Shown: positions 44,880 to 64,000 of the stretch, piece after piece
Layout of the letters: every line of letters starts with the position of its first letter
Numbering within the stretch: position 1 is the stretch's first letter
NCBI GenBank assembly: GCA_964016885.1
Contig: OZ024741.1
Span: 6,076,001 to 6,140,000 of the forward strand
Source of the DNA: Eledone cirrhosa
Taxonomy: Eukaryota
DNA: 64,000 bases
Reading direction: 5' to 3'
The notes under the pieces: generated by a model
Told to the model about the DNA's origin: nothing
The model's input: the letters and a program-made list of their open reading frames with translations, nothing else
The model's database searches: none
Made by a program: the position numbers and the translations under genes

Positions 44880-45584
44880 CTAAAACTGAGAGAGTATTCT
44901 GTTGGCCTGACCAGGGCCGACTTCATTCTCATATCGATAGGAAAGATATTTGGCAGTTTCTGTAAACTCCTGCAACAGGTTAAATAATCCACGGAGATGA
45001 TACTTGAAGGAAGTGGCGACATGACGGGGGACTTCGTCATTGCCACTACCATTGGAACCGACAGAGGCACAGTCATCTTCATCGCATATATCCATAGTTG
45101 ATGTCGACTCCACATCTTGGTCTTGTTCATGATCCTGCTCCGTCGGAGAGTCCAGACAATCATTTTGCAAGTTTCCACATGTCACTTCTTGTTTAATGGC
45201 TTTCAACATACTGTAGAAGTTGTATAAGTTTTTTGCGTCGGCATTAGCAGCGAGGAGGGTGCTTTGTTCGGCCGAATGCCGGCGGCGATGATTTGGTTTC
45301 AATTTTAGGTTAGAACTCAGGCTCGGAATGCTGGCACTTGAAGACGATGGAGACGGTGGGGCGCTGAAAGAATGATAGGGATCCCGGCCTTGTCGGTCAC
45401 CAGAAATTGGGTTAAAGTTGGGGTCCGATTCCTGCGAAATCTCCATATCTCTCAGTCTGCTTGGTATCATAACTGTGGAGTCCATATAGTTGACGGCCGA
45501 AACGAAGTTGCTTAAGGCGGACAAGATGGACTGATGGGTCACCCGTTCCTCGGAGATACTCATATCACGGACAGGATGGTTCAT
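44880..45584 (-). CDS. MID1IP1: Spot14/MID1-interacting protein 1 (THRSP/MIG12 family) protein, 234 aa, single coding exon
   Basis: All three family motifs occur in order: QSILSALSNFVSAVNYMDSTVMIPSRLRDM, LYNFYSMLKAIKQEV and FKYHLRGLFNLLQEFTETAKYLSYRYENEVG. The start context ACCACCATG is strong and the ORF is uninterrupted. The symbol denotes family-level homology only. Confidence 0.93.
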   Translation of the reverse strand: MNHPVRDMSISEERVTHQSILSALSNFVSAVNYMDSTVMIPSRLRDMEISQESDPNFNPISGDRQGRDPYHSFSAPPSPSSSSASIPSLSSNLKLKPNHRRRHSAEQSTLLAANADAKNLYNFYSMLKAIKQEVTCGNLQNDCLDSPTEQDHEQDQDVESTSTMDICDEDDCASVGSNGSGNDEVPRHVATSFKYHLRGLFNLLQEFTETAKYLSYRYENEVGPGQANRILSQF

Positions 45585-47440: not shown

Positions 47441-47555
47441 ATAGGAACAAGTATGACCCCGACGGCAGAGCTCAAGCCGTTTCGACGGCTAATTTGTCCA
47501 GAATTAGCCGTCGAAACGGCTTGAGCTCTGCCGTCGGGGTCATACTTGTTCCTAT
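47441..47555. repeat. Perfect hairpin, 54-bp arms and 7-nt loop; probable inactivated hammerhead ribozyme remnant
   Basis: 47441-47494 is the exact reverse complement of 47502-47555, with loop TGTCCAG. The right half reads GAAA-CGGC-TTGAGCTCT-GCCG-TC, like a hammerhead 3' half. The hairpin itself is directly observed, and the ribozyme origin is inferred. Confidence 0.85.
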
Positions 47556-47631
47556 TACCCACTCTACTACCCTAAGTATTGAGTACTTTGGTGCGTTATG
47601 GTCCATCTGGTTCCTTACCACATTTCCTTCG

Positions 47632-47776
47632 TTATATATATATATAACATATATATTATATATATAACATATATATTATATATATAACATATAACATATA
47701 TATTATATATATAACATATTATATATATAACATATATAACATATATATTATATATATAACATATATATTATATATA

Positions 47777-47846
<70 letters not shown>
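47632..47846. repeat. (TA)n / TATATAACATA microsatellite
   Basis: AT-only tract with interspersed AC. Confidence 0.95.
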
Positions 47847-47849
<3 letters not shown>

Positions 47850-47952
47850 ACATATAAATGAAGTAATTCCGTCGGAAAAGTCCAGGAAAAAAGAGTGCTC
47901 TATGTAGGTAACAGAGCTTAATAGTTATGTAATAAACAACATAAGGCAATTA

Positions 47953-48012
47953 TTCCATTTACCAGTGGTTTCTTAAAAGCAAAAAATTTTGCTTTCAATC
48001 ATCAGAATGAAA
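47953..48012 (-). ncRNA. Type I hammerhead ribozyme motif (copy 1)
   Basis: Reverse complement of the 48515-48574 motif, within the left arm. Confidence 0.75.
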
Positions 48013-48514
48013 AAATCCTGGTCTGTTTATTGAATTTGGATTTTAAAAACAAAAATGCAATCTATATGAAAGTGAGGCTGGAGAAAGAAGAAGGAAAGGA
48101 AAAATAAAATAAAAACACACATGCAAACAGACACACACACACACAAATGCATACATACACACATATATATATATGTGTATATAATATACATACACACACA
48201 CATATACACATATATATGTGTATATAAATACACACATACACATACACATACATACATACATACGCACATAAATATCAACACATCCATACATACATATATA
48301 CAACCACACATATATACAACCACACATACATATACACATATATATGTGTATATGTGTGTGTATGTATATATATATATATATATTATGTGTGTGTGTGTGT
48401 TTGCATGTGTGTTTTTATTTTATTTTTCCTTTCCTTCTTCTTTCTCCAGCCTCACTTTCATATAGATTGCATTTTTGTTTTTAAAATCCAAATTCAATAA
48501 ACAGACCAGGATTT

Positions 48515-48574
48515 TTTCATTCTGATGATTGAAAGCAAAATTTTTTGCTTTTAAGAAACCACTGGTAAATGGAA
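48515..48574 (+). ncRNA. Type I hammerhead ribozyme motif (copy 2)
   Basis: Stem I UUUCAUU / core CUGAUGA (48522-48528) / stem II UUGAAAGCAAAA..UUUUGCUUUUAA / GAAA (48555-48558) / minimal stem III CCA-C-UGG / GUA cleavage triplet (48565-48567) / stem I' AAUGGAA. Confidence 0.78.
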
Positions 48575-48740
48575 TAATTGCCTTATGTTGTTTATTACAT
48601 AACTATATTACATATATATATATATATATATATGTGTGTATATATATATATTTATTAAAATAACAGATTAAAGTTTAAGCAAAGAATCGCTGCTTTCACC
48701 CTTAACGGGAGCTTTTATTATTATTATTATTATTATTTAC

Positions 48741-49081: not shown

Positions 49082-49243
49082 AGTAATGCTGTCAGTGTGT
49101 TGGCTTACCTCAAAATATTCCATTGACCTTTGTGATGTGATGTGTGATAGATTGTCACACTCGTTTTTTTTTTTTGTCTTTCACTTTGGTGAGTTGTATT
49201 TGTGAGGTTCTTAGCAATAGTTAATTGTATTTATTATGTGTTT

Positions 49244-49427
49244 GGTGAATTGGCAGTATCGGTAGAGGGTAGGATATGCTTTCCAGCATAGTTACGTCCC
49301 TTTACGATCTGAGTTCAATTCCCGCCGAGGTTTACTTTGCCTTTCATCCTTACGGGGTCGATAAAATAAAGTACCAGTAATGTACTGGGATAATTGCTGG
49401 CCTTGTGCCAAAAGTAGAAACAATTAT
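49244..49427 (+). mobile_element. tRNA-derived SINE (octopus-type)
   Basis: A-box-like TGGCAGTATCGG, B-box GAGTTCAATTCCC, core CGCCGAGGTTTACTTTGCCTTTCATCCTTACGGGGTCGATAAAATAAAGTACCAGT, and tail GCTGGCCTTGTGCCAAAAGTAGAAAC. Several related copies occur in the window. Confidence 0.85.
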
Positions 49428-49499
49428 GTGTTTATATTTGTGTTTACATTTTCGTTCTGAAAAAATTTGTGAACAATTTGTAATGTTATTTATACAACT

Positions 49500-50012: not shown

Positions 50013-50215
50013 TAATAATATTACTATAGGCCAGCTATTTCAGAAGGGAAAGTCGATTAAATCAACTCCAGTGCGTTACTGGTACTTTATTTTTATCGAC
50101 CCCGTAAAAATGAAAGGCAAAGCTAACCCCGGTGGGATTTGAACTCAGAACGTAAAGGGCCGTAACTCTATGTCGCAGGCATGTTGTCCGACGCTCTACA
50201 GATACTGCCAATCCA
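50013..50215 (-). mobile_element. tRNA-derived SINE (same family as 49244)
   Basis: ACTGGTACTTTATTTTTATCGACCCCGTAAAAATGAAAGGCAAAG...GGGATTTGAACTCAGAACGTAAAGG...ATACTGCCAAT is the reverse complement of the 49244 copy. Confidence 0.85.
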
Positions 50216-50690: not shown

Positions 50691-53600
50691 ATTACACCAC
50701 TACTAGTACCACCACTACTGGTACCACCATCCTCTCCACCTTACACCACTACCTGTACCACCACCCTCTCCACCTTACACCACTACTGGTACCACCACTA
50801 CTGGTACCACCATCCTCTCCACCTTACACCACTACCTGTACCACCACCCTCTCCACCTTACACCACTACTGGTACCACCACTACTGGTACCACCATCCTC
50901 TCCACCTTACACCACTACCTGTACCACCACCCTCTCCACCTTACACCACTACTGGTACCACCACTACTAGTACCACCACCCTCTCCACCTTACACCACTA
51001 CTGGTACCACCATCCTCTCCACCTTACACCACTACCTGTACCACCACCCTCTCCACCTTACACCACTACCTGTACCACCACCCTCTCCACATTACACCAC
51101 TACCTGTACCACCACCCTCTCCACCTTACACCACTACTAGTACCACCACCCTCTCCACCTTACACCACTACCTGTACCACCACCCTCTCCACATTACACC
51201 ACTACCTGTACCACCACCCTCTCCACCTTACACCACTACTAGTACCACCACCCTCTCCACCTTACACCACTACCTGTACCACCACCCTCTCCACATTACA
51301 CCACTACCTGTACCACCACCCTCTCCACATTACACCACTACTAGTACCACCACCCTCTCCACCTTACACCACTACCTGTACCACCACCCTCTCCACCTTA
51401 CACCACTACCTGTACCACCACCCTCTCAACGTTACACCACTACCAGTACCACCACCCTCTCCACCTTACACCACTACCTGTACCACCACCCTCTCCACCT
51501 TACACCACTACCTGTACCACCACCCTCTCAACGTTACACCACTACTGGTACCACCACCCTCTCCACCTTACACCACTACTGTTACCACCACCCTCTCCAC
51601 CTTACACCACTACCAGTACCACCACCCTCTCCACCTTACACCACTACTGGTAACACCACCCTCTCCACCTTACACCACTACCAGTACCACCACCCTCTCC
51701 ACCTTACACCACTACCTGTACCACCACCCTCTCCACCTTACACCACTACTGGTACCACCACCCTCTCCACATAACACCACTACCTGTACCACCACCCTCT
51801 CCACCTTACACCACTACTAGTACCACCACCCTCTCCACCTTACACCACTACCTGTACCACCACCCTCTCCACCTTACACCACTACCTGTACCACCACCCT
51901 CTCCACCTTACACCACTACCTGTACCACCACCCTCTCCACCTTACACCACTACCTGTACCACCACCCTCTCCACCTTACACCACTACCTGTACCACCACC
52001 CTCTCCACATTACACCACTACCAGTACCACCACCCTCTCCACCTTACACCACTACCTGTACCACCACCCTCTCCACCTTACACCACTACCTGTACCACCG
52101 CCCTCTCCACCTTACACCACTACCTGTACCACCACCCTCTCCACCTTACACCACTACCAGTACCACCACCCTCTCCACCTTACACCACTACTGGTACCAC
52201 CACCCTCTCCACATAACACCACTACCTGTACCACCACCCTCTCCACCTTACACCACTACTAGTACCACCACCCTCTCCACCTTACACCACTACCTGTACC
52301 ACCACCCTCTCCACCTTACTCCACTACTGGTACCACCACCCTCTCCACCTTACACCACTACTGGTACCACCACCCTCTCCACCTTACACCACTACCTGTA
52401 CCACCACCCTCTCCAGCTTACACCACTACCTGTACCACCACCCTCTCCACCTTACACCACTACCTGTACCACCACCCTCTCCAGCTTACACCACTACCTG
52501 TACCACCACCCTCTCCAGCTTACACCACTACCTGTACCACCACCCTCTCCACCTTACACCACTACCTGTACCACCACCCTCTCCAGCTTACACCACTACC
52601 TGTACCACCACCCTCTCCAGCTTACACCACTACCTGTACCACCACCCTCTCCACCTTACACCACTACCTGTACCACCACCCTCTCCAGCTTACACCACTA
52701 CCTGTACCACCACCCTCTCCACCTTACACCACTACCTGTACCACCACCCTCTCCACATTACACCACTACCTGTACCACCACCCTCTCCACCTTACACCAC
52801 TACCTGTACCACCACCCTCTCCACATTACACCACTACCTGTACCACCACCCTCTCCACCTTACACCACTACTGGTACCACCACCCTCTCCACCTTACACC
52901 ACTACCTGTACCACCACCCTCTCCACCTTACACCACTACCTGTACCACCACCCTCTCCACCTTACACCACTACTGGTACCACCACCCTCTCCACCTTACA
53001 CCACTACCTGTACCACCACCCTCTCCACATTACACCACTACCAGTACCACCACCCTCTCCACATTACACCACTACCTGTACCACCACCCTCTCCACATTA
53101 CACCACTACCTGTACCACCACCCTCTCCACATTACACCACTACCTGTACCACCACCCTCTCCACATTACACCACTACCTGTACCACCACCCTCTCCACCT
53201 TACACCACTACTGGTACCACCACCCTCTCCACCTTACACCACTACTGGTACCACCACCCTCTCCACCTTACACCACTACCTGTACCACCACCCTCTCCAC
53301 CTTACACCACTACCTGTACCACCACCCTCTCCACCTTACACCACTACCAGTACCACCACTCTCTCCACCTTACACCACTACCTGTACCACCACCCTCTCC
53401 ACCTTACACCACTACCTGTACCACCACCCTCTCCACATTACACCACTACCTGTACCACCACCCTCTCCACATTACACCACTACCTGTACCACCACCCTCT
53501 CCACCTTACACCACTACTGGTACCACCACCCTCTCCACCTTACACCACTACCTGTACCACCACCCTCTCCACCTTACACCACTACCTGTACCACCACCCT

Positions 53601-56600
53601 CTCCACCTTACACCACTACTGGTACCACCACCCTCTCCACCTTACACCACTACCTGTACCACCACCCTCTCCACCTTACACCACTACCTGTACCACCACC
53701 CTCTCCACCTTACACCACTACCTGTACCACCACCCTCTCCACCTTACACCACTACTGGTACCACCACCCTCTCCACCTTACACCACTACCTGTACCACCA
53801 CCCTCTCCACCTTACACCACTACTAGTACCACCACCCTCTCCACCTTACACCACTACCTGTACCACCACCCTCTCCACCTTACACCACTACCTGTACCAC
53901 CACCCTCTCCACATTACACCACTACCTGTACCACCACCCTCTCCACCTTACACCACTACTAGTACCACCACCCTCTCCACCTTACACCACTACCAGTACC
54001 ACCACCCTCTCCACCTTACACCACTACCTGTACCACCACCCTCTCCACATTACACCACTACTAGTACCACCACCCTCTCCACCTTACACCACTACCTGTA
54101 CCACCACCCTCTCCACCTTACACCACTACCTGTACCACCACCCTCTCCACCTTACACCACTACCTGTACCACCACCCTCTCCACCTTACACCACTACTGG
54201 TACCACCACCCTCTCCACCTTACACCACTACTGGTAACACCACCCTCTCCACCTTACACCACTACCTGTACCACCACCCTCTCCACCTTACACCACTACC
54301 TGTACCACCACCCTCTCCACCTTACACCACTACCTGTACCACCACCCTCTCCACCTTACACCACTACTGGTACCACCACCCTCTCCACCTTACACCACCA
54401 CTAGTACCACCACCCTCTCCACCTTACACTACTACCTGTACCACCACCCTCTCCACATTACACCACTACCTGTACCACCACCCTCTCCACCTTACACCAC
54501 TACTAGTACCACCACCCTCTCCACCTTACACCACTACTGGTACCACCACCCTCTCCACCTTACACCACTACTGGTACCACCACCCTCTCCACGTTACACC
54601 ACTACTGGCACCACCACCCTCTCCACCTTACACCACTACTAGTACCACCACCCTCTCCACCTTACACCACTACCTGTACCACCACCCTCTCCACCTTACA
54701 CCACTACCTGTACCACCACCCTCTCCACCTTACACCACTACTGGTACCACCACCCTCTCCACCTTACACCACTACTGGTACCACCACCCTCTCCACCTTA
54801 CACCACTACCTGTACCACCACCCTCTCCACCTTACACCACTACCTGTACCACCACTCTCTCCACCTTACACCACTACTGGTACCACCACCCTCTCCACCT
54901 TACACCACTACCTGTACCACCACCCTCTCCACCTTACACCACTACCTGTACCACCACCCTCTCCACCTTACACCACTACTGGTACCACCACCCTCTCCAC
55001 CTTACACCACTACCTGTACCACCACCCTCTCCACCTTACACCACTACCAGTACCACCACTCTCTCCACCTTACACCACTACCTGTACCACCACCCTCTCC
55101 ACCTTACACCACTACCTGTACCACCACCCTCTCCACCTTACACCACTACCTGTACCACCACCCTCTCCACCTTACACCACTACCTGTACCACCACCCTCT
55201 CCACCTTACACCACTACCTGTACCACCACCCTCTCCACCTTACACCACTACCTGTACCACCACCCTCTCCACCTTACACCACTACTGGTACCACCACCCT
55301 CTCCACCTTACACCACTACCTGTACCACCACCCTCTCCACCTTACACCACTACCAGTACCACCACCCTCTCCACCTTACACCACTACCTGTACCACCACC
55401 CTCTCCACCTTACACCACTACCAGTACCACCACCCTCTCCACCTTACACCACTACCTGTACCACCACCCTCTCCACCTTACACCACTACCAGTACCACCA
55501 CCCTCTCCACCTTACACCACTACCAGTACCACCACCCTCTCCACCTTACACCACTACCAGTACCACCACCCTCTCCACCTTACACCACTACCAGTACCAC
55601 CACTCTCTCCACCTTACACCACTACCTGTACCACCACCCTCTCCACCTTACACCACTACCTGTACCACCACCCTCTCCACATTACACCACTACCTGTACC
55701 ACCACCCTCTCCACATTACACCACTACCTGTACCACCACCCTCTCCACCTTACACCACTACTGGTACCACCACCCTCTCCACCTTACACCACTACCTGTA
55801 CCACCACCCTCTCCACCTTACACCACTACCTGTACCACCACCCTCTCCACCTTACACCACTACTGGTACCACCACCCTCTCCACCTTACACCACTACCTG
55901 TACCACCACCCTCTCCACCTTACACCACTACCTGTACCACCACCCTCTCCACCTTACACCACTACCTGTACCACCACCCTCTCCACCTTACACCACTACT
56001 GGTACCACCACCCTCTCCACCTTACACCACTACCTGTACCACCACCCTCTCCACCTTACACCACTACTAGTACCACCACCCTCTCCACCTTACACCACTA
56101 CCTGTACCACCACCCTCTCCACCTTACACCACTACCTGTACCACCACCCTCTCCACATTACACCACTACCTGTACCACCACCCTCTCCACCTTACACCAC
56201 TACTAGTACCACCACCCTCTCCACCTTACACCACTACCAGTACCACCACCCTCTCCACCTTACACCACTACCTGTACCACCACCCTCTCCACATTACACC
56301 ACTACTAGTACCACCACCCTCTCCACCTTACACCACTACCTGTACCACCACCCTCTCCACCTTACACCACTACCTGTACCACCACCCTCTCCACCTTACA
56401 CCACTACCTGTACCACCACCCTCTCCACCTTACACCACTACTGGTACCACCACCCTCTCCACCTTACACCACTACTGGTAACACCACCCTCTCCACCTTA
56501 CACCACTACCTGTACCACCACCCTCTCCACCTTACACCACTACCTGTACCACCACCCTCTCCACCTTACACCACTACCTGTACCACCACCCTCTCCACCT

Positions 56601-59600
56601 TACACCACTACTGGTACCACCACCCTCTCCACCTTACACCACCACTAGTACCACCACCCTCTCCACCTTACACTACTACCTGTACCACCACCCTCTCCAC
56701 ATTACACCACTACCTGTACCACCACCCTCTCCACCTTACACCACTACTAGTACCACCACCCTCTCCACCTTACACCACTACTGGTACCACCACCCTCTCC
56801 ACCTTACACCACTACTGGTACCACCACCCTCTCCACGTTACACCACTACTGGCACCACCACCCTCTCCACCTTACACCACTACTAGTACCACCACCCTCT
56901 CCACCTTACACCACTACCTGTACCACCACCCTCTCCACCTTACACCACTACCTGTACCACCACCCTCTCCACCTTACACCACTACTGGTACCACCACCCT
57001 CTCCACCTTACACCACTACTGGTACCACCACCCTCTCCACCTTACACCACTACCTGTACCACCACCCTCTCCACCTTACACCACTACCTGTACCACCACT
57101 CTCTCCACCTTACACCACTACTGGTACCACCACCCTCTCCACCTTACACCACTACCTGTACCACCACCCTCTCCACCTTACACCACTACCTGTACCACCA
57201 CCCTCTCCACCTTACACCACTACTGGTACCACCACCCTCTCCACCTTACACCACTACCTGTACCACCACCCTCTCCACCTTACACCACTACCAGTACCAC
57301 CACTCTCTCCACCTTACACCACTACCTGTACCACCACCCTCTCCACCTTACACCACTACCTGTACCACCACCCTCTCCACCTTACACCACTACCTGTACC
57401 ACCACCCTCTCCACCTTACACCACTACCTGTACCACCACCCTCTCCACCTTACACCACTACCTGTACCACCACCCTCTCCACCTTACACCACTACCTGTA
57501 CCACCACCCTCTCCACCTTACACCACTACTGGTACCACCACCCTCTCCACCTTACACCACTACCTGTACCACCACCCTCTCCACCTTACACCACTACCAG
57601 TACCACCACCCTCTCCACCTTACACCACTACCTGTACCACCACCCTCTCCACCTTACACCACTACCAGTACCACCACCCTCTCCACCTTACACCACTACC
57701 TGTACCACCACCCTCTCCACCTTACACCACTACCAGTACCACCACCCTCTCCACCTTACACCACTACCAGTACCACCACCCTCTCCACCTTACACCACTA
57801 CCAGTACCACCACCCTCTCCACCTTACACCACTACCAGTACCACCACCCTCTCCACCTTACACCACTACCAGTACCACCACCCTCTCCACCTTACACCAC
57901 TACCAGTACCACCACCCTCTCCACCTTACACCACTACCAGTACCACCACCCTCTCCACCTTACACCACTACCAGTACCACCACCCTCTCCACCTTACACC
58001 ACTAGCAGTACCACCACCCTCTCCACCTTACACCACTACCTGTACCACCACCCTCTCCACCTTACACCACTACCTGTACCACCACCCTCTCCACCTTACA
58101 CCACTACCTGTACCACCACCCTCTCCACCTTACTCCACTACTGGTACCACCACCCTCTCCACCTTACTCCACTACTGGTACCACCACCCTCTCTACCTTA
58201 CACCACTACTGGTACCACCACCCTCTCTACCTTACTCCACTACTGGTACCACCACCCTCTCCACCTTACACCACTACCTGTACCACCACCCTCTCCACCT
58301 TACACCACTACTGGTACCACCACCCTCTCCACCTTACACCACTACTGGTACCACCACCCTCTCCACCTTACACCACTACTAGTACCACCACCCTCTCCAC
58401 CTTACACCACTACTGGTACCACCACCCTCTCCACCTTACACCACTACTGGTACCACCACCCTCTCCACCTTACACCACTACCTGTACCACCACCCTCTCC
58501 ACGTTACACCACTACTGGTACCACCACCCTCTCCACCTTACACCACTACCTGTACCACCACCCTCTCCACCTTACACCACTACTGGTACCACCACCCTCT
58601 CCACCTTACACCACCTCTGGCACCACCACCCTCTCCACCTTACACCACTACTGGTACCACCACCCTCTCCACCTTACACCACTACCTGTACCACCACCCT
58701 CTCCACGTTACACCACTACTGGTACCACCACCCTCTCCACCTTACACCACTACCTGTACCACCACCCTCTCCACCTTACACCACTACCTGTACCACCACC
58801 CTCTCCACCTTACACCACTACTGGTACCACCACCCTCTCCACCTTACACCACTACCTGTACCACCACCCTCTCCACGTTACACCACTACTGGTACCACCA
58901 CCCTCTCCACCTTACACCACTACCTGTACCACCACCCCTCTCCACCTTACACCACTACCTGTACCACCACCCCTCTCCACCTTACTCCACTACTGGTACC
59001 ACCACCCTCTCCACCTTACACCACTACTGGTACACCACCCCTCCACCTTACACCACTACCTGTACCACCACCCTCTCCACCTTACACCACTACCTGTACC
59101 ACCACCCTCTCCACCTTACACCACTACCTGTACCACCACCCTCTCCACCTTACACCACTACTGTACCACCACCCTCTCCACCTTACACCACTACCTGTAC
59201 CACCACCCTCTCCACCTTACACCACTACCTGTACCACCACCCTCTCCACCTTACACCACTACCTGTACCACCACCCTCTCCACCTTACACCACTACCTGT
59301 ACCACCACCCTCTCCACCTTACACCACTACCTGTACCTCCACCCCTCTCCACCTTACACCACTACCTGTACCACCACCCTCTCCACCTTACACCACTACT
59401 GGTACCACCACCCTCTCCACCTTACACCACTACCTGTACCACCACCCTCTCCACCTTACACCACTACCTGTACCTCCACCCTCTCCACCTTACACCACTA
59501 CCTGGTACCACCACCCTCTCCACCTTACACCACTACCTGTACCACCACCCTCTCCACCTTACTCCACTACTGGTACCACCACCCTCTCCACCTTACACCA

Positions 59601-62600
59601 CTACCTGTACCACCACCCTCTCCACCTTACACCACTACTGGTACCACCACCCTCCTCCACCTTACACCACTACCTGTACCACCACCCTCTCCACCTTACA
59701 CCACTACCTGTACCACCACCCTCTCCACCTTACACCACTACCTGTACCACCACCCTCTCCACCTTACACCACTACCTGTACCACCACCCTCTCCACCTTA
59801 CACCACTACTGGTACCACCACCCTCTCCACCTTACTCCACTACTGGTACCACACCCCCTCCACCTTACACCACTACCTGTACCACCACCCTCTCCACCTT
59901 ACACCACTACCTGTACCACCACCCTCTCCACCTTACACCACTACTGGTACCACCACCCTCTCCACCTTACACCACTACTGGTACCACCACCCCTCCACCT
60001 TACACCACTACCTGTACCACCACCCTCTCCACCTTACACCACTACCTGTACCACCACCCTCTCCACCTTACACCACTACCTGTACCACCACCCTCTCCAC
60101 CTTACACCACTACTTGTACCACCACCCTCTCCACCTTACACCACTACTGGTACCACCACCCTCTCCACCTTACACCACTACTGTACCACCACCCTCTCCA
60201 CCTTACACCACTACTGGTACCACCACCCTCTCCACCTTACACCACTACCTGTACCACACCCTCTCCACCTTACACCACTACTGTACCACCACCCTCTCCA
60301 CCTTACACCACTACCTGTACCACCACCCTCTCCACCTTACACCACTACTGGTACCACCACCCCTCTCCACCTTACACCACTACCTGTACCACCACCCTCT
60401 CCACCTTACACCACTACCTGGTACCACCACCCTCTCCACCTTACACCACTACCTGTACCACCACCCTCTCCACCTTACACCACTACTGGTACCACCACCC
60501 TCTCCACCTTACACCACTACCTGTACCACCACCCTCTCCACCTTACACCACTACCTGGTACCACCACCCTCTCCACCTTACACCACTACCTGGTACCACC
60601 ACCCTCTCCACCTTACACCACTACCTGTACCACCACCCTCCTCCACCTTACACCACTACCTGGTACCTCCACCCTCTCCACCTTACACCACTACCTGTAC
60701 CACCACCCTCTCCACCTTACACCACTACTGGTACCACCACCCTCTCCACCTTACACCACTACCTGGTACCACCACCCTCTCCACCTTACACCACTACCTG
60801 TACCACCACCCTCTCCACCTTACACCACTACTGGTACCACCACCCTCTCCACCTTACACCACTACCTGTACCACCACCCTCTCCACCTTACACCACTACC
60901 TGGTACCACCACCCTCTCCACCTTACACCACTACTGGTACCACACCCTCTCCACCTTACACCACTACCTGTACCACCACCCTCTCCACCTTACACCACTA
61001 CCTGGTACCACCACCCTCTCCACCTTACACCACTACCTGTACCACCACCCTCTCCACCTTACACCACTACTGGTACCTCCACCCTCTCCACCTTACACCA
61101 CTACCTGTACCACCACCCTCTCCACCTTACACCACTACTGGTACCACCACCCTCTCCACCTTACACCACTACCTGTACCACCACCCTCTCCACCTTACAC
61201 CACTACCTGTACCACCACCCTCTCCACCTTACACCACTACCTGTACCACCACCCTCTCCACCTTACACCACTACCTGTACCACCACCCTCTCCACCTTAC
61301 ACCACTACCTGTACCACCACCCTCTCCACCTTACACCACTACTGGTACCACACCTCTCCACCTTACACCACTACTGGTACCACCACCCTCTCCACCTTAC
61401 ACCACTACTGTACCACCACCCTCTCCACCTTACACCACTACCTGTACCACCACCCTCTCCACCTTACACCACTACTGGTACCACCACCCTCTCCACCTTA
61501 CACCACTACTGTACCACCACCCTCTCCACCTTACACCACTACCTGTACCACCACCCTCTCCACCTTACACCACTACTGGTACCACCACCCTCTCCACCTT
61601 ACACACTACCAGTACCACCACCCTCTCCACCTTACACCACTACCTGTACCACCACCCTCTCCACCTTACACCACTACCTGTACCACCACCCTCTCCACCT
61701 TACACCACTACCTGTACCACCACCCTCTCCACCTTACACCACTACTGGTACCACCACCCTCTCCACCTTACACCACTACCTGTACCACCACCCTCTCCAC
61801 CTTACACCACTACCTGTACCACCACCCTCTCCACCTTACACCACTACTGTACCACCACCCTCTCCACCTTACACCACTACTGGTACCACCACCCTCTCCA
61901 CCTTACACCACTACCTGTACCACCACCCTCTCCACCTTACACCACTACTGTACCACCACCCTCTCACCTTACACCACTACTGGTACCACCACCCTCTCCA
62001 CCTTACACCACTACTGGTACCACCACCCTCTCCACCTTACACCACTACCTGTACCACCACCTCTCCACCTTACACCACTACTGTACCACCCTCTCCACCT
62101 TACACCACTACCTGTACCACCACCCTCTCCACCTTACACCACTACCTGTACCACCACCCTCTCCACCTTACACCACTACTGGTACCACCACCCTCTCCAC
62201 CTTACACCACTACCTGTACCACCACCCTCTCCACCTTACACCACTACCTGTACCACCACCCTCTCCACCTTACACCACTACCTGTACCACCACCCTCTCC
62301 ACATTACACCACTACTGGTACCACCACCCTCTCCACCTTACAGCACTACTGGTACCTCCACCCTCTCCACCTTACACCACTACCAGTACCACCACCCTCT
62401 CCACCTTACACCACTACCTGTACCACCGCCCTCTCCACCTTACACCACTACCTGTACCACCACCCTCTCCACATTACACCACTACTGGTACCACCACCCT
62501 CTCCACATTACACCACTACTGGTACCACCACCCTCTCCACCTTACACCACTACTGGTACCACCACCCTCTCCACCTTACTCCACTACTGGTACCACCACC

Positions 62601-64000
62601 CTCTCCACCTTACACCACTACCTGTACCACCACCCTCTCCACATTACACCACTACTGGTACCACCACCCTCTCCACCTTACACCACTACCAGTACCACCA
62701 CCCTCTCCACCTTACACCACTACCTGTACCACCGCCCTCTCCACCTTACACCACTACCTGTACCACCACCCTCTCCACCTTACACCACTACCTGTACCAC
62801 CACCCTCTCCACATTACACCACTACTGGTACCACCACCCTCTCCACCTTACACCACTACTGGTACCACCACCCTCTCCACCTTACTCCACTACTGGTACC
62901 ACCACCCTCTCCACATTACACCACTACTGGTACCACCACCCTCTCCACCTTACACCACTACTGGTACCACCACCCTCTCCACCTTACTCCACTACTGGTA
63001 CCACCACCCTCTCCACCTTACACCACTACTGGTACCACCACCCTCTCCACCTTACACCACTACTGGTACCACCACCCTCTCCACCTTACTCCACTACTGG
63101 TACCACCACCCTCTCCACCTTACACCACTACTGGTACCACCACCCTCTCCACCTTACACCACTACCTGTACCACCACCCTCTCCACCTTACACCACTACT
63201 GGTACCACCACCCTCTCCACCTTACACCACTACTGGTACCACCACCCTCTCCACCTTACACCACTACTGGTACCACCACCCTCTCCACCTTACTCCACTA
63301 CTGGTACCACCACCCTCTCCACCTTACACCACTACTGGTACCACCACCCTCTCCACCTTACACCACTACCTGTACCACCACCCTCTCCACCTTACACCAC
63401 TACTGGTACCACCACCCTCTCCACCTTACACCACTACTGGTACCACCACCCTCTCCACCTTACACCACTACCTGTACCACCACCCTCTCCACATTACACC
63501 ACTACTGGTACCACCACCCTCTCCACCTTACACCACTACTGGTACCACCACCCTCTCCACCTTACTCCACTACTGGTACCACCACCCTCTCCACATTACA
63601 CCACTACTGGTACCACCACCCTCTCCACCTTACACCACTACTGGTACCACCACCCTCTCCACCTTACTCCACTACTGGTACCACCACCCTCTCCACCTTA
63701 CACCACTACTGGTACCACCACCCTCTCCACCTTACACCACTACTGGTACCACCACCCTCTCCACCTTACACCACTACTGGTACCACCACCCTCTCCACCT
63801 TACACCACTACTGGTACCACCACCCTCTCCACCTTACACCACTACTGGTACCACCACCCTCTCCACCTTACACCACTACTGGTACCACCACCCTCTCCAC
63901 CTTACACCACTACTGGTACCACCACCCTCTCCACCTTACACCACTACCTGTACCACCACCCTCTCCACATTACACCACTACTGGTACCACCACCCTCTCC
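50691..64000. repeat. Satellite array 2: 34-bp unit TACCACCACCCTCTCCACCTTACACCACTA(CCTG/CTGG/CTAG/CCAG), continues past the right edge
   Basis: Continuous tandem copies, with variation concentrated in one 4-nt slot and in ACCT/ACAT/AGCT/ACGT. Confidence 0.98.

Follow-up and report, generated by a model that had tools for sequence, protein, structure and literature searches.

A perfect inverted repeat that carries a hammerhead ribozyme motif in each arm can be read as an element in its own right, as the residue of a larger element, or as an error of sequencing or assembly, and if it is real the question follows of how two identical ends came to lie head to head and whether the ribozymes within them can act. 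Such a repeat occurs in the window analysed here, by which is meant the whole 64,000-nucleotide stretch of the Eledone cirrhosa genome.

The inverted repeat and its hammerhead motifs

The arms of the repeat match exactly over 209 bp and have no outward extension; a repeat search that allows one mismatch lengthens the match to 221 nt. Both the coordinates and the fold of the 66-nt core agree with the initial annotation of this DNA, made from the sequence alone, which had described a 209-bp perfect inverted repeat with a hammerhead in each arm. That description was right about the inverted arms and overlooked two things: the tail present on one side only (47853-47920) and the link to an open reading frame. 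The longer of the two copies that make up the locus, called L here, contains a microsatellite-rich 3' UTR, the pseudo-LTR (pLTR), the hammerhead and the 68-nt tail, and its 5' limit is approximate (48340-48385, within the microsatellite). The 5' limit of the shorter, tailless copy, called S, is also approximate, and is placed at the element's own palindrome ATATACACATATATATGTGTATAT. The flanks offer a possible imperfect target site duplication (TSD) of 13-15 bp. Coordinates are collected in Table 1.

Table 1. Features of the insertion and of the neighbouring gene, in positions of the window
Feature	Coordinates	Strand	Basis and remarks
Spot14-family host gene, 234 aa	44880..45584	-	Pfam PF07084, E 2e-27; ORF
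Putative imperfect TSD, left copy TATATTTTACATATA	47842..47856	+	edge of (TA)n tract
Long (L) arm: PLE 3' end, 5'-truncated	47853..48385	-	ends +107 past cut site; alignment to L016 and L006
68-nt tail, on one side only	47853..47920	-	start of PLE 5' UTR
Left arm, exact 209-bp inverted repeat	47921..48129	-	arm comparison
Mirror type I hammerhead motif	47950..48015	-	exact complement of 48512-48577; predicted cut between 47960 and 47959
Short (S) arm: inverted 5'-truncated copy, tailless	48330..48606	+	ends +39 past cut site
Right arm, exact 209-bp inverted repeat	48398..48606	+	arm comparison
Type I hammerhead motif	48512..48577	+	fold and variation pattern; predicted cut after 48567 (GUA)
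Putative imperfect TSD, right copy TATATTACATATA	48604..48616	+	

On the plus strand, stem I is formed by 48512-48521 and 48568-48577, with standard pairs at nine of its ten positions, one of them G-U. The core consists of CUGAUGA (48522-48528) and GAAA (48555-48558), stem II (48529-48554) has 11 bp and a U-A closing pair, and stem III has 3 bp (ACC/GGU) with the loop ACU and is followed by the GUA triplet, so that the CUGANGA and GAAA elements, an NUH site and the three stems of a type I hammerhead are all present. The minimum-energy fold of the 66 nt from 48512 to 48577 is a three-way hammerhead junction (-11.9 kcal/mol), and the full type I topology claimed for both arms is therefore upheld; an 81-nt fragment with added flank takes another fold (z -2.09). 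Rfam gave no match at gathering thresholds, and no hammerhead family was among its 76 matches at E<=5; the Hydra hammerheads given in File S2 of PMC8557442 were identified by means other than Rfam.

The motif shares with the metazoan PLE hammerheads presented by Cervera and De la Pena (2014, PMC4209133) a long stem II and a short, near-palindromic stem III, for which dimeric activity was predicted. It differs from them in that its stem III, with 3 bp and a triloop, can form in a monomer, and in that stem II closes with U-A where theirs closes with G10.1-C11.1. The U-A pair had been singled out as unusual; it is indeed present, but it is not unusual among relatives, since most Hydra ribozymes in File S2 of PMC8557442 read ctgatgat...tgaa.

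Variation was compared in 167 terminal copies of the motif and in 69 copies of a second, internal hammerhead that is described below. Variants at a frequency of 10% or more affect N7 (T, G, A), loops II and III, H17 and a distal position of stem I, where it must be borne in mind that the terminal counts for stem III and the triplet are biased, because most of the loci were found through a pattern containing them, whereas N7 and the internal copies are unbiased. The 69 internal copies also have two variable positions in stem II, one giving a wobble and one a broken pair. No conserved core base varies at this level in either set, and the expectation that other copies would conserve the core has thus been borne out. 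Judged from the sequences, the variation resembles the pattern that selection on a hammerhead would give, with no double-compensatory change in the stems of any of the 167 terminal and 69 internal copies.

The parent element

Examination of the flanks of 30 copies revealed that the arm continues upstream into a microsatellite-rich region, then into the second hammerhead, and then into sequence coding for a reverse transcriptase (RT) and an endonuclease (EN). The full unit consists, in order, of a pLTR, the 68-nt tail and 5' UTR, an RT-GIY-YIG ORF of 711 aa, a microsatellite-rich 3' UTR with the second hammerhead, and a further pLTR, and measures about 3.9-4.5 kb from one pLTR to the other. Where the ORF has a copy in front of it, as in full copies, the arm and the 68-nt tail are followed by about 100 nt and then the ATG, and it is from this order that the arm and tail are recognized as a pseudo-LTR. 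By these sequence relationships the 209-bp arm is the 3' pLTR of an autonomous Hydra-clade Penelope-like retrotransposon (PLE), and the window copy is a truncated stub of it.

This identification bears out the placing of the hammerheads with those of PLE pseudo-LTRs, the suggestion that the repeat is of the inverted PLE kind (it is a 5'-truncated copy head to head with an inverted one), and the anticipated link to PLE RT/GIY-YIG ORFs, RT and EN pieces having been found upstream of arm homologues. The proposal of a non-autonomous ribozyme-bearing retroelement, on the other hand, has to be abandoned, since the arm is continuous with an autonomous PLE of about 4 kb that has complete ORFs elsewhere in the genome.

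The family is abundant: a 28-nt ribozyme motif has 3,813 exact copies in the 3.0-Gb genome, against 0 for a control. It is also young, as had been supposed: a repeat search with the arm gave 1,074 candidates, and the 40 that were scored are 98-100% identical. A search with an RT piece gave at least 150 matches at 91-100% identity, and about 19 of those listed (counted by eye) have open frames of 713-715 aa; 20 regions chosen around RT matches yielded nine complete frames of 714-715 codons with the arm and tail at their flanks.

The protein chosen to represent the family (P0003, 711 aa) is a single RT ORF with a C-terminal GIY-YIG-type EN, in which DIVDFYPSI and YRDD are followed by VVYEA...YVGMT. 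It contains RWK (in KRMRWKA), DKT in place of DKG (in SDKTKN), a CxCX5C linker, CxxC before E and CxH after N, and CCHH is absent. A Pfam search of P0003 gave RVT_1 below its threshold (E 0.015) and none of the GIY-YIG families, so the Hydra assignment rests on the motifs and on likeness to Hydra alignments. The traits attributed to the Hydra clade in section 11 of PMC8557442 are RWK, DKT, CxCX5C, CxxC/CxH, lack of CCHH, (TA)n targets and a canonical hammerhead, and the clade resembles the window family further in its single RT-EN ORF of about 710 aa with YRDD, in the position of the type I hammerhead near the 3' end and, in Penelope-13_HM, in an inverted 5'-truncated copy at that end. The pLTR of the window family carries a canonical hammerhead, and TA tracts lie beside nearly all of the 35 inverted pairs printed for inspection, with one locus (L100/L103) in AT-rich DNA that is not repetitive. 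The insertions have the architecture of EN+ PLEs, with a partial-tandem pLTR, an inverted 5'-truncated copy and a one-sided tail.

The family departs from the clade in two respects: its tail is 68 nt where Hydra tails are 30-40 nt, and its unit is about 4 kb, whereas Hydra elements are generally short (<3 kb), a trait worded in PMC8557442 as typical rather than strict. The additional length is due to a 3' UTR of 1.1-1.9 kb, rich in microsatellites, that contains the second, GUG-type hammerhead. The nearest known element is Hydra-1_Obim of Octopus bimaculoides (Craig et al. 2021, PMC8557442), which shares long motifs with P0003 by eye; the window PLE is a separate family, with a different hammerhead sequence and a protein that is visibly different, again by eye only.

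Two readings would deny that the locus is a fragment of such an element. If it were a stand-alone, non-autonomous ribozyme element, similar to a retrozyme or a MITE and having the inverted repeat itself as its unit, then pLTR-only stubs would be expected to outnumber ORF-bearing copies, as they do by far (summed contig depth, which is not a copy number, is about 100-fold higher over the pLTR), and its matches would be young, as their 98-100% identity attests. Such a unit should, however, have fixed limits, whereas the 5' boundaries and spacers vary from locus to locus, with 53 to 7,700 bp between cut sites, and the arm sequence runs on into the RT-EN ORF. The animal non-LTR retrozymes described by Cervera and De la Pena (2020, PMC7229834) likewise have their type I hammerhead within a repeat of low GC content, but they are non-coding head-to-tail repeats of 150-450 bp, without an RT of their own, while the window arm is the inverted, variably truncated end of a coding PLE. 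The present family has a continuous RT-EN ORF, forms outward inverted pairs at 35 of 72 loci, and shows only short local tandems (L018, L144) in place of head-to-tail 150-450-bp arrays. A stand-alone element is accordingly very improbable.

Exact identity over 209 bp within microsatellite-rich DNA might also be produced by misassembly or by a fold-back read, a danger that the initial annotation had itself pointed out. What speaks against an artefact is the tail on one side, the dissimilarity of the arms inside the spacer, the TSD-like flank, and the repetition of the end rule set out below at more than 60 loci. Both end types, moreover, recur among public DNA contigs in the form of (TA)n loose ends; these contigs come from one study and possibly from the assembly's own sample. 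Since the arms differ outside the repeat, the architecture recurs at dozens of loci, and both end types are found in these contigs, an artefact is exceedingly unlikely.

Paired ends and integration

The arrangement of ends was surveyed in two samples. The first, made up of the first 100 pattern matches on contig C1, comprises 72 loci, of which 35 are outward-pointing pairs, 33 have only one end in the sequence retrieved, and 4 are arranged otherwise. One long and one short end make up 34 of the 35 pairs, the other being unclassified (L100 and L103 in this sample are one duplicated locus). The S ends lie 34-42 nt past the cut site and the L ends, which include the tail, 101-109 nt past it. In the second sample, drawn from other searches, the combination holds in 29 of 32 pairs, with L067 (S/S) and L069 (L/L) as exceptions and a third, L085, scored S/S because internal copies were taken as ends when it is actually L/S. 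The rule thus holds in 63 of 67 pairs over both samples, with arms ending at about +39 and about +107, and the window locus obeys it, its minus arm being L (ending at 47853) and its plus arm S (ending at 48606). A qualitative statement that the tail is often at one end is in this way turned into a sharp constraint on the mechanism of PLE integration.

Other properties of the pairs are less regular. The base at N7 is identical between the arms in 28 of 29 pairs, against an expectation of 0.60, and both arms must therefore derive from one template lineage. On the 5' side either arm may be the longer (by eye, S in about 9 clear pairs and L in about 6), and in L116 and L123 the L arm consists of the tail only (+38 or +36 to +107). 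Among the 33 single-end loci, 20 are S and 13 are L. A TSD of 16 bp occurs at L100.

It is very probable that the locus represents one insertion of an autonomous Hydra-clade PLE, made up of two 5'-truncated 3' ends head to head in (TA)n, and likely produced by two coupled events of target-primed reverse transcription. The head-to-head architecture itself is an already published PLE structure. PMC8557442 describes an inverted truncated PLE copy and a tail on one side, for which EN-mediated resolution is proposed, PMC3846280 an inverted pLTR with a one-sided tail and TSD, for which self-priming is proposed, and PMC4209133 hammerhead motifs 100-700 bp apart on opposite strands.

We consider it probable that the priming is dual, with one event for each cut DNA strand. 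The endonuclease would make a staggered cut in (TA)n, giving two 3' ends, and the RT would initiate on one uncleaved RNA at two internal sites, +39 and +107, each of which would be a short TA microhomology. Both cDNAs would stop early and would then be joined head to head through microhomology. The hammerhead would be selected in the active family and be a passenger at the window locus. In vitro work on a lizard Poseidon element (Poseidon_Ac or PAc, from Anolis carolinensis; Frangieh et al. 2024, PMC11167929) offers a partial parallel: both target strands were cut and extended, RT started at two internal sites whose spacing equals the tail, a dimer was predicted, and ribozyme cleavage was dispensable. 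PAc resembles the window family in having the tail between two fixed ends downstream of the hammerhead, in its AT-rich target, and in showing no sign that a ribozyme cut defines the copied RNA. It belongs to another and distant clade, however, and starts inside its ORF without homology to the target, whereas the window family starts in the 5' UTR at TA microhomologies, which weakens the parallel; a strict pairing of one site with each arm is not quantified in the main text of PMC11167929. In the literature covered, no biochemistry of any Hydra PLE was found, and a search of titles and abstracts that took in few subscription papers found no link between twin priming and PLEs.

The same ends might be reached from a single cDNA, which, having started at +107, would snap back on a local palindrome and be copied as far as +39, the EN or a bound protein resolving the product. 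Fold-back of this kind would likewise yield arms of identical sequence, one with a long and one with a short end. It explains equally well the many pairs that are near-perfect palindromes with equal arms (L087 with 2459/2462, L089, L111, L131), its pivots would be the short intrinsic palindromes at which arms meet in the window and elsewhere, and it is in keeping with the self-priming of PMC3846280 and the EN-mediated tail resolution of PMC8557442. It also predicts, however, that everything in the S arm is present in the L arm as well, and this is contradicted by the pairs in which S is clearly the longer by eye (L119, L129, L132 and L149 among them), by the L arms of L116, L123 and L165, which stop at +36 to +40, and by the preponderance of S among the single ends. 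Fold-back must therefore call on extra deletions, unequal arms being attributed to later losses from the centre, and we judge it unlikely, if by no means negligible. Dual priming, the reading preferred here, has its own exceptions in L067 and L069, and does not of itself account for the 33 of 72 loci with a single end.

Two observations on the ends may be added. Short (CA)n runs stand between the last TTCA of the PLE and the (TA)n target at many tail ends (L092, L111, L129, L140, L142, L145 and others), which suggests stuttering of the RT at initiation. At L088 (G000:C1:3570319-3571585) the pair faces inward, and both arms end with a tail around a central (TA)17.

Cleavage, the internal hammerhead and the neighbourhood

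Every copy has its 3' end downstream of the predicted cut, and the copied RNA must therefore have been uncleaved at the 3' ribozyme, or else circular or tandem. The 5' ends of copies do not accumulate at the cut site: 39 genome matches lack the upstream bases (about 1% of the 3,813 copies), against 16 for a control position about 11 nt upstream of the cut and 79 for one 8 nt downstream, figures obtained with letter sets of differing stringency, the downstream control being dominated by one repeated upstream 4-mer that is possibly a sequence variant. The start of L067 at the cut site looks incidental.

The initial annotation had supposed that in a transcript crossing the window locus self-cleavage would compete with formation of the duplex. 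The computed folding energy is -432 kcal/mol for the whole insert and -12 kcal/mol for the ribozyme, and the antisense arm is made first in any crossing transcript; on this modelling, sequestration in the 209-bp duplex should not compete with cleavage but forestall it, and self-cleavage at the locus would be unlikely. Head-to-head insertions spread long perfect hairpins through the genome, which would be sources of dsRNA wherever they are transcribed.

The second hammerhead lies in the 3' UTR of the longer copies, at least 1.1 kb upstream of the terminal one, and has 697 exact matches in the genome. Its core is retained, and its site is GUG in 66 of the 69 copies examined, which departs from NUH and should not be cleavable. 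Divergence between groups of copies is 0.083 in the internal hammerhead, 0.11-0.19 in the adjacent UTR and 0.048 in the terminal copy, values to be read with the caveats that the grouping is rough and that the figure for the ORF end is inflated by truncated copies. As evidence that the internal hammerhead is selected, such sequence comparison is only suggestive, and the pattern could also arise through conversion by the terminal copy.

The stem III strands of two copies can pair with each other (-8.2 kcal/mol, computed), so the internal copy could serve as the enzyme in a double hammerhead. This leads to an asymmetric model in which the internal GUG copy would supply an enzyme strand that cuts only the pLTR copy, while a protein dimer would prime both DNA strands at two fixed sites of one RNA, 68 nt from each other. 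We hold this to be improbable, and a literature search in which few subscription papers were covered found no precedent for an uncleavable partner hammerhead in a retrotransposon. The internal copy could equally be a fossil, the remnant of an earlier 3' end that a single change silenced and that conversion partly homogenized; captured spacers within PLE 3' ends are described in PMC3846280. Whichever holds, a retained GUG hammerhead provides a direct test of whether PLE ribozymes act as dimers, and if the asymmetric model were true, the thousands of copies and the complete ORFs would make this family the best natural system for studying the role of PLE ribozymes and inverted insertions.

Within one unit the two hammerheads, internal and terminal, mostly carry the same N7 base (T/T or G/G; L031-L042, L082-L084 and L112, in a subfamily like that of the window), a hint of conversion between them. 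A 1.2-kb non-autonomous unit lying between two direct hammerheads was considered and dropped, because ORF sequence lies upstream.

The insertion is situated about 2.3 kb upstream of the start codon of the Spot14 gene, and the minus hammerhead lies on the same strand as that gene, 2.37 kb from its ATG at 45584, close to the distance of about 2.4 kb given earlier. Taken alone, the locus is common transposon debris, and the more useful object is the family, which is very abundant and recently active and has complete ORFs. Satellites at 1-36047 (20/38-bp unit, about 36 kb) and 50959-64000 (34-bp unit, more than 13 kb) flank the 15-kb island that contains Spot14.

Other repeats accompany the element. 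At 47441-47633 there is a separate repeat of about 190 bp in (TA)n, one end of which is formed by a perfect 54-bp hairpin (47441-47494 / 47502-47555); it has 881 candidates in the genome, the top 40 at 91-100% identity, and occurs also inside or beside the PLE copies L003, L008 and L015. The 54-bp palindrome (47441-47555) belongs to this repeat and is no part of the PLE. Copies of another common dispersed repeat, which we take to be SINE-like, lie at 49243-49437 and 50091-50167 and form a 77-nt inverted pair at 88%. In the downstream flanks of L020 and L021, other long palindromic elements lie in (TA)n beside the PLE ends.

Among the truncated arms of L087-L158, the points of truncation or inversion seem by eye to cluster at -60 to -65 from the cut site (10 of 55 arms), which is 14-19 nt upstream of the hammerhead core, where there is a 5-mer with complementarity to stem III. 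A second apparent cluster in the same loci lies at -88 to -108, and both are near short intrinsic palindromes.
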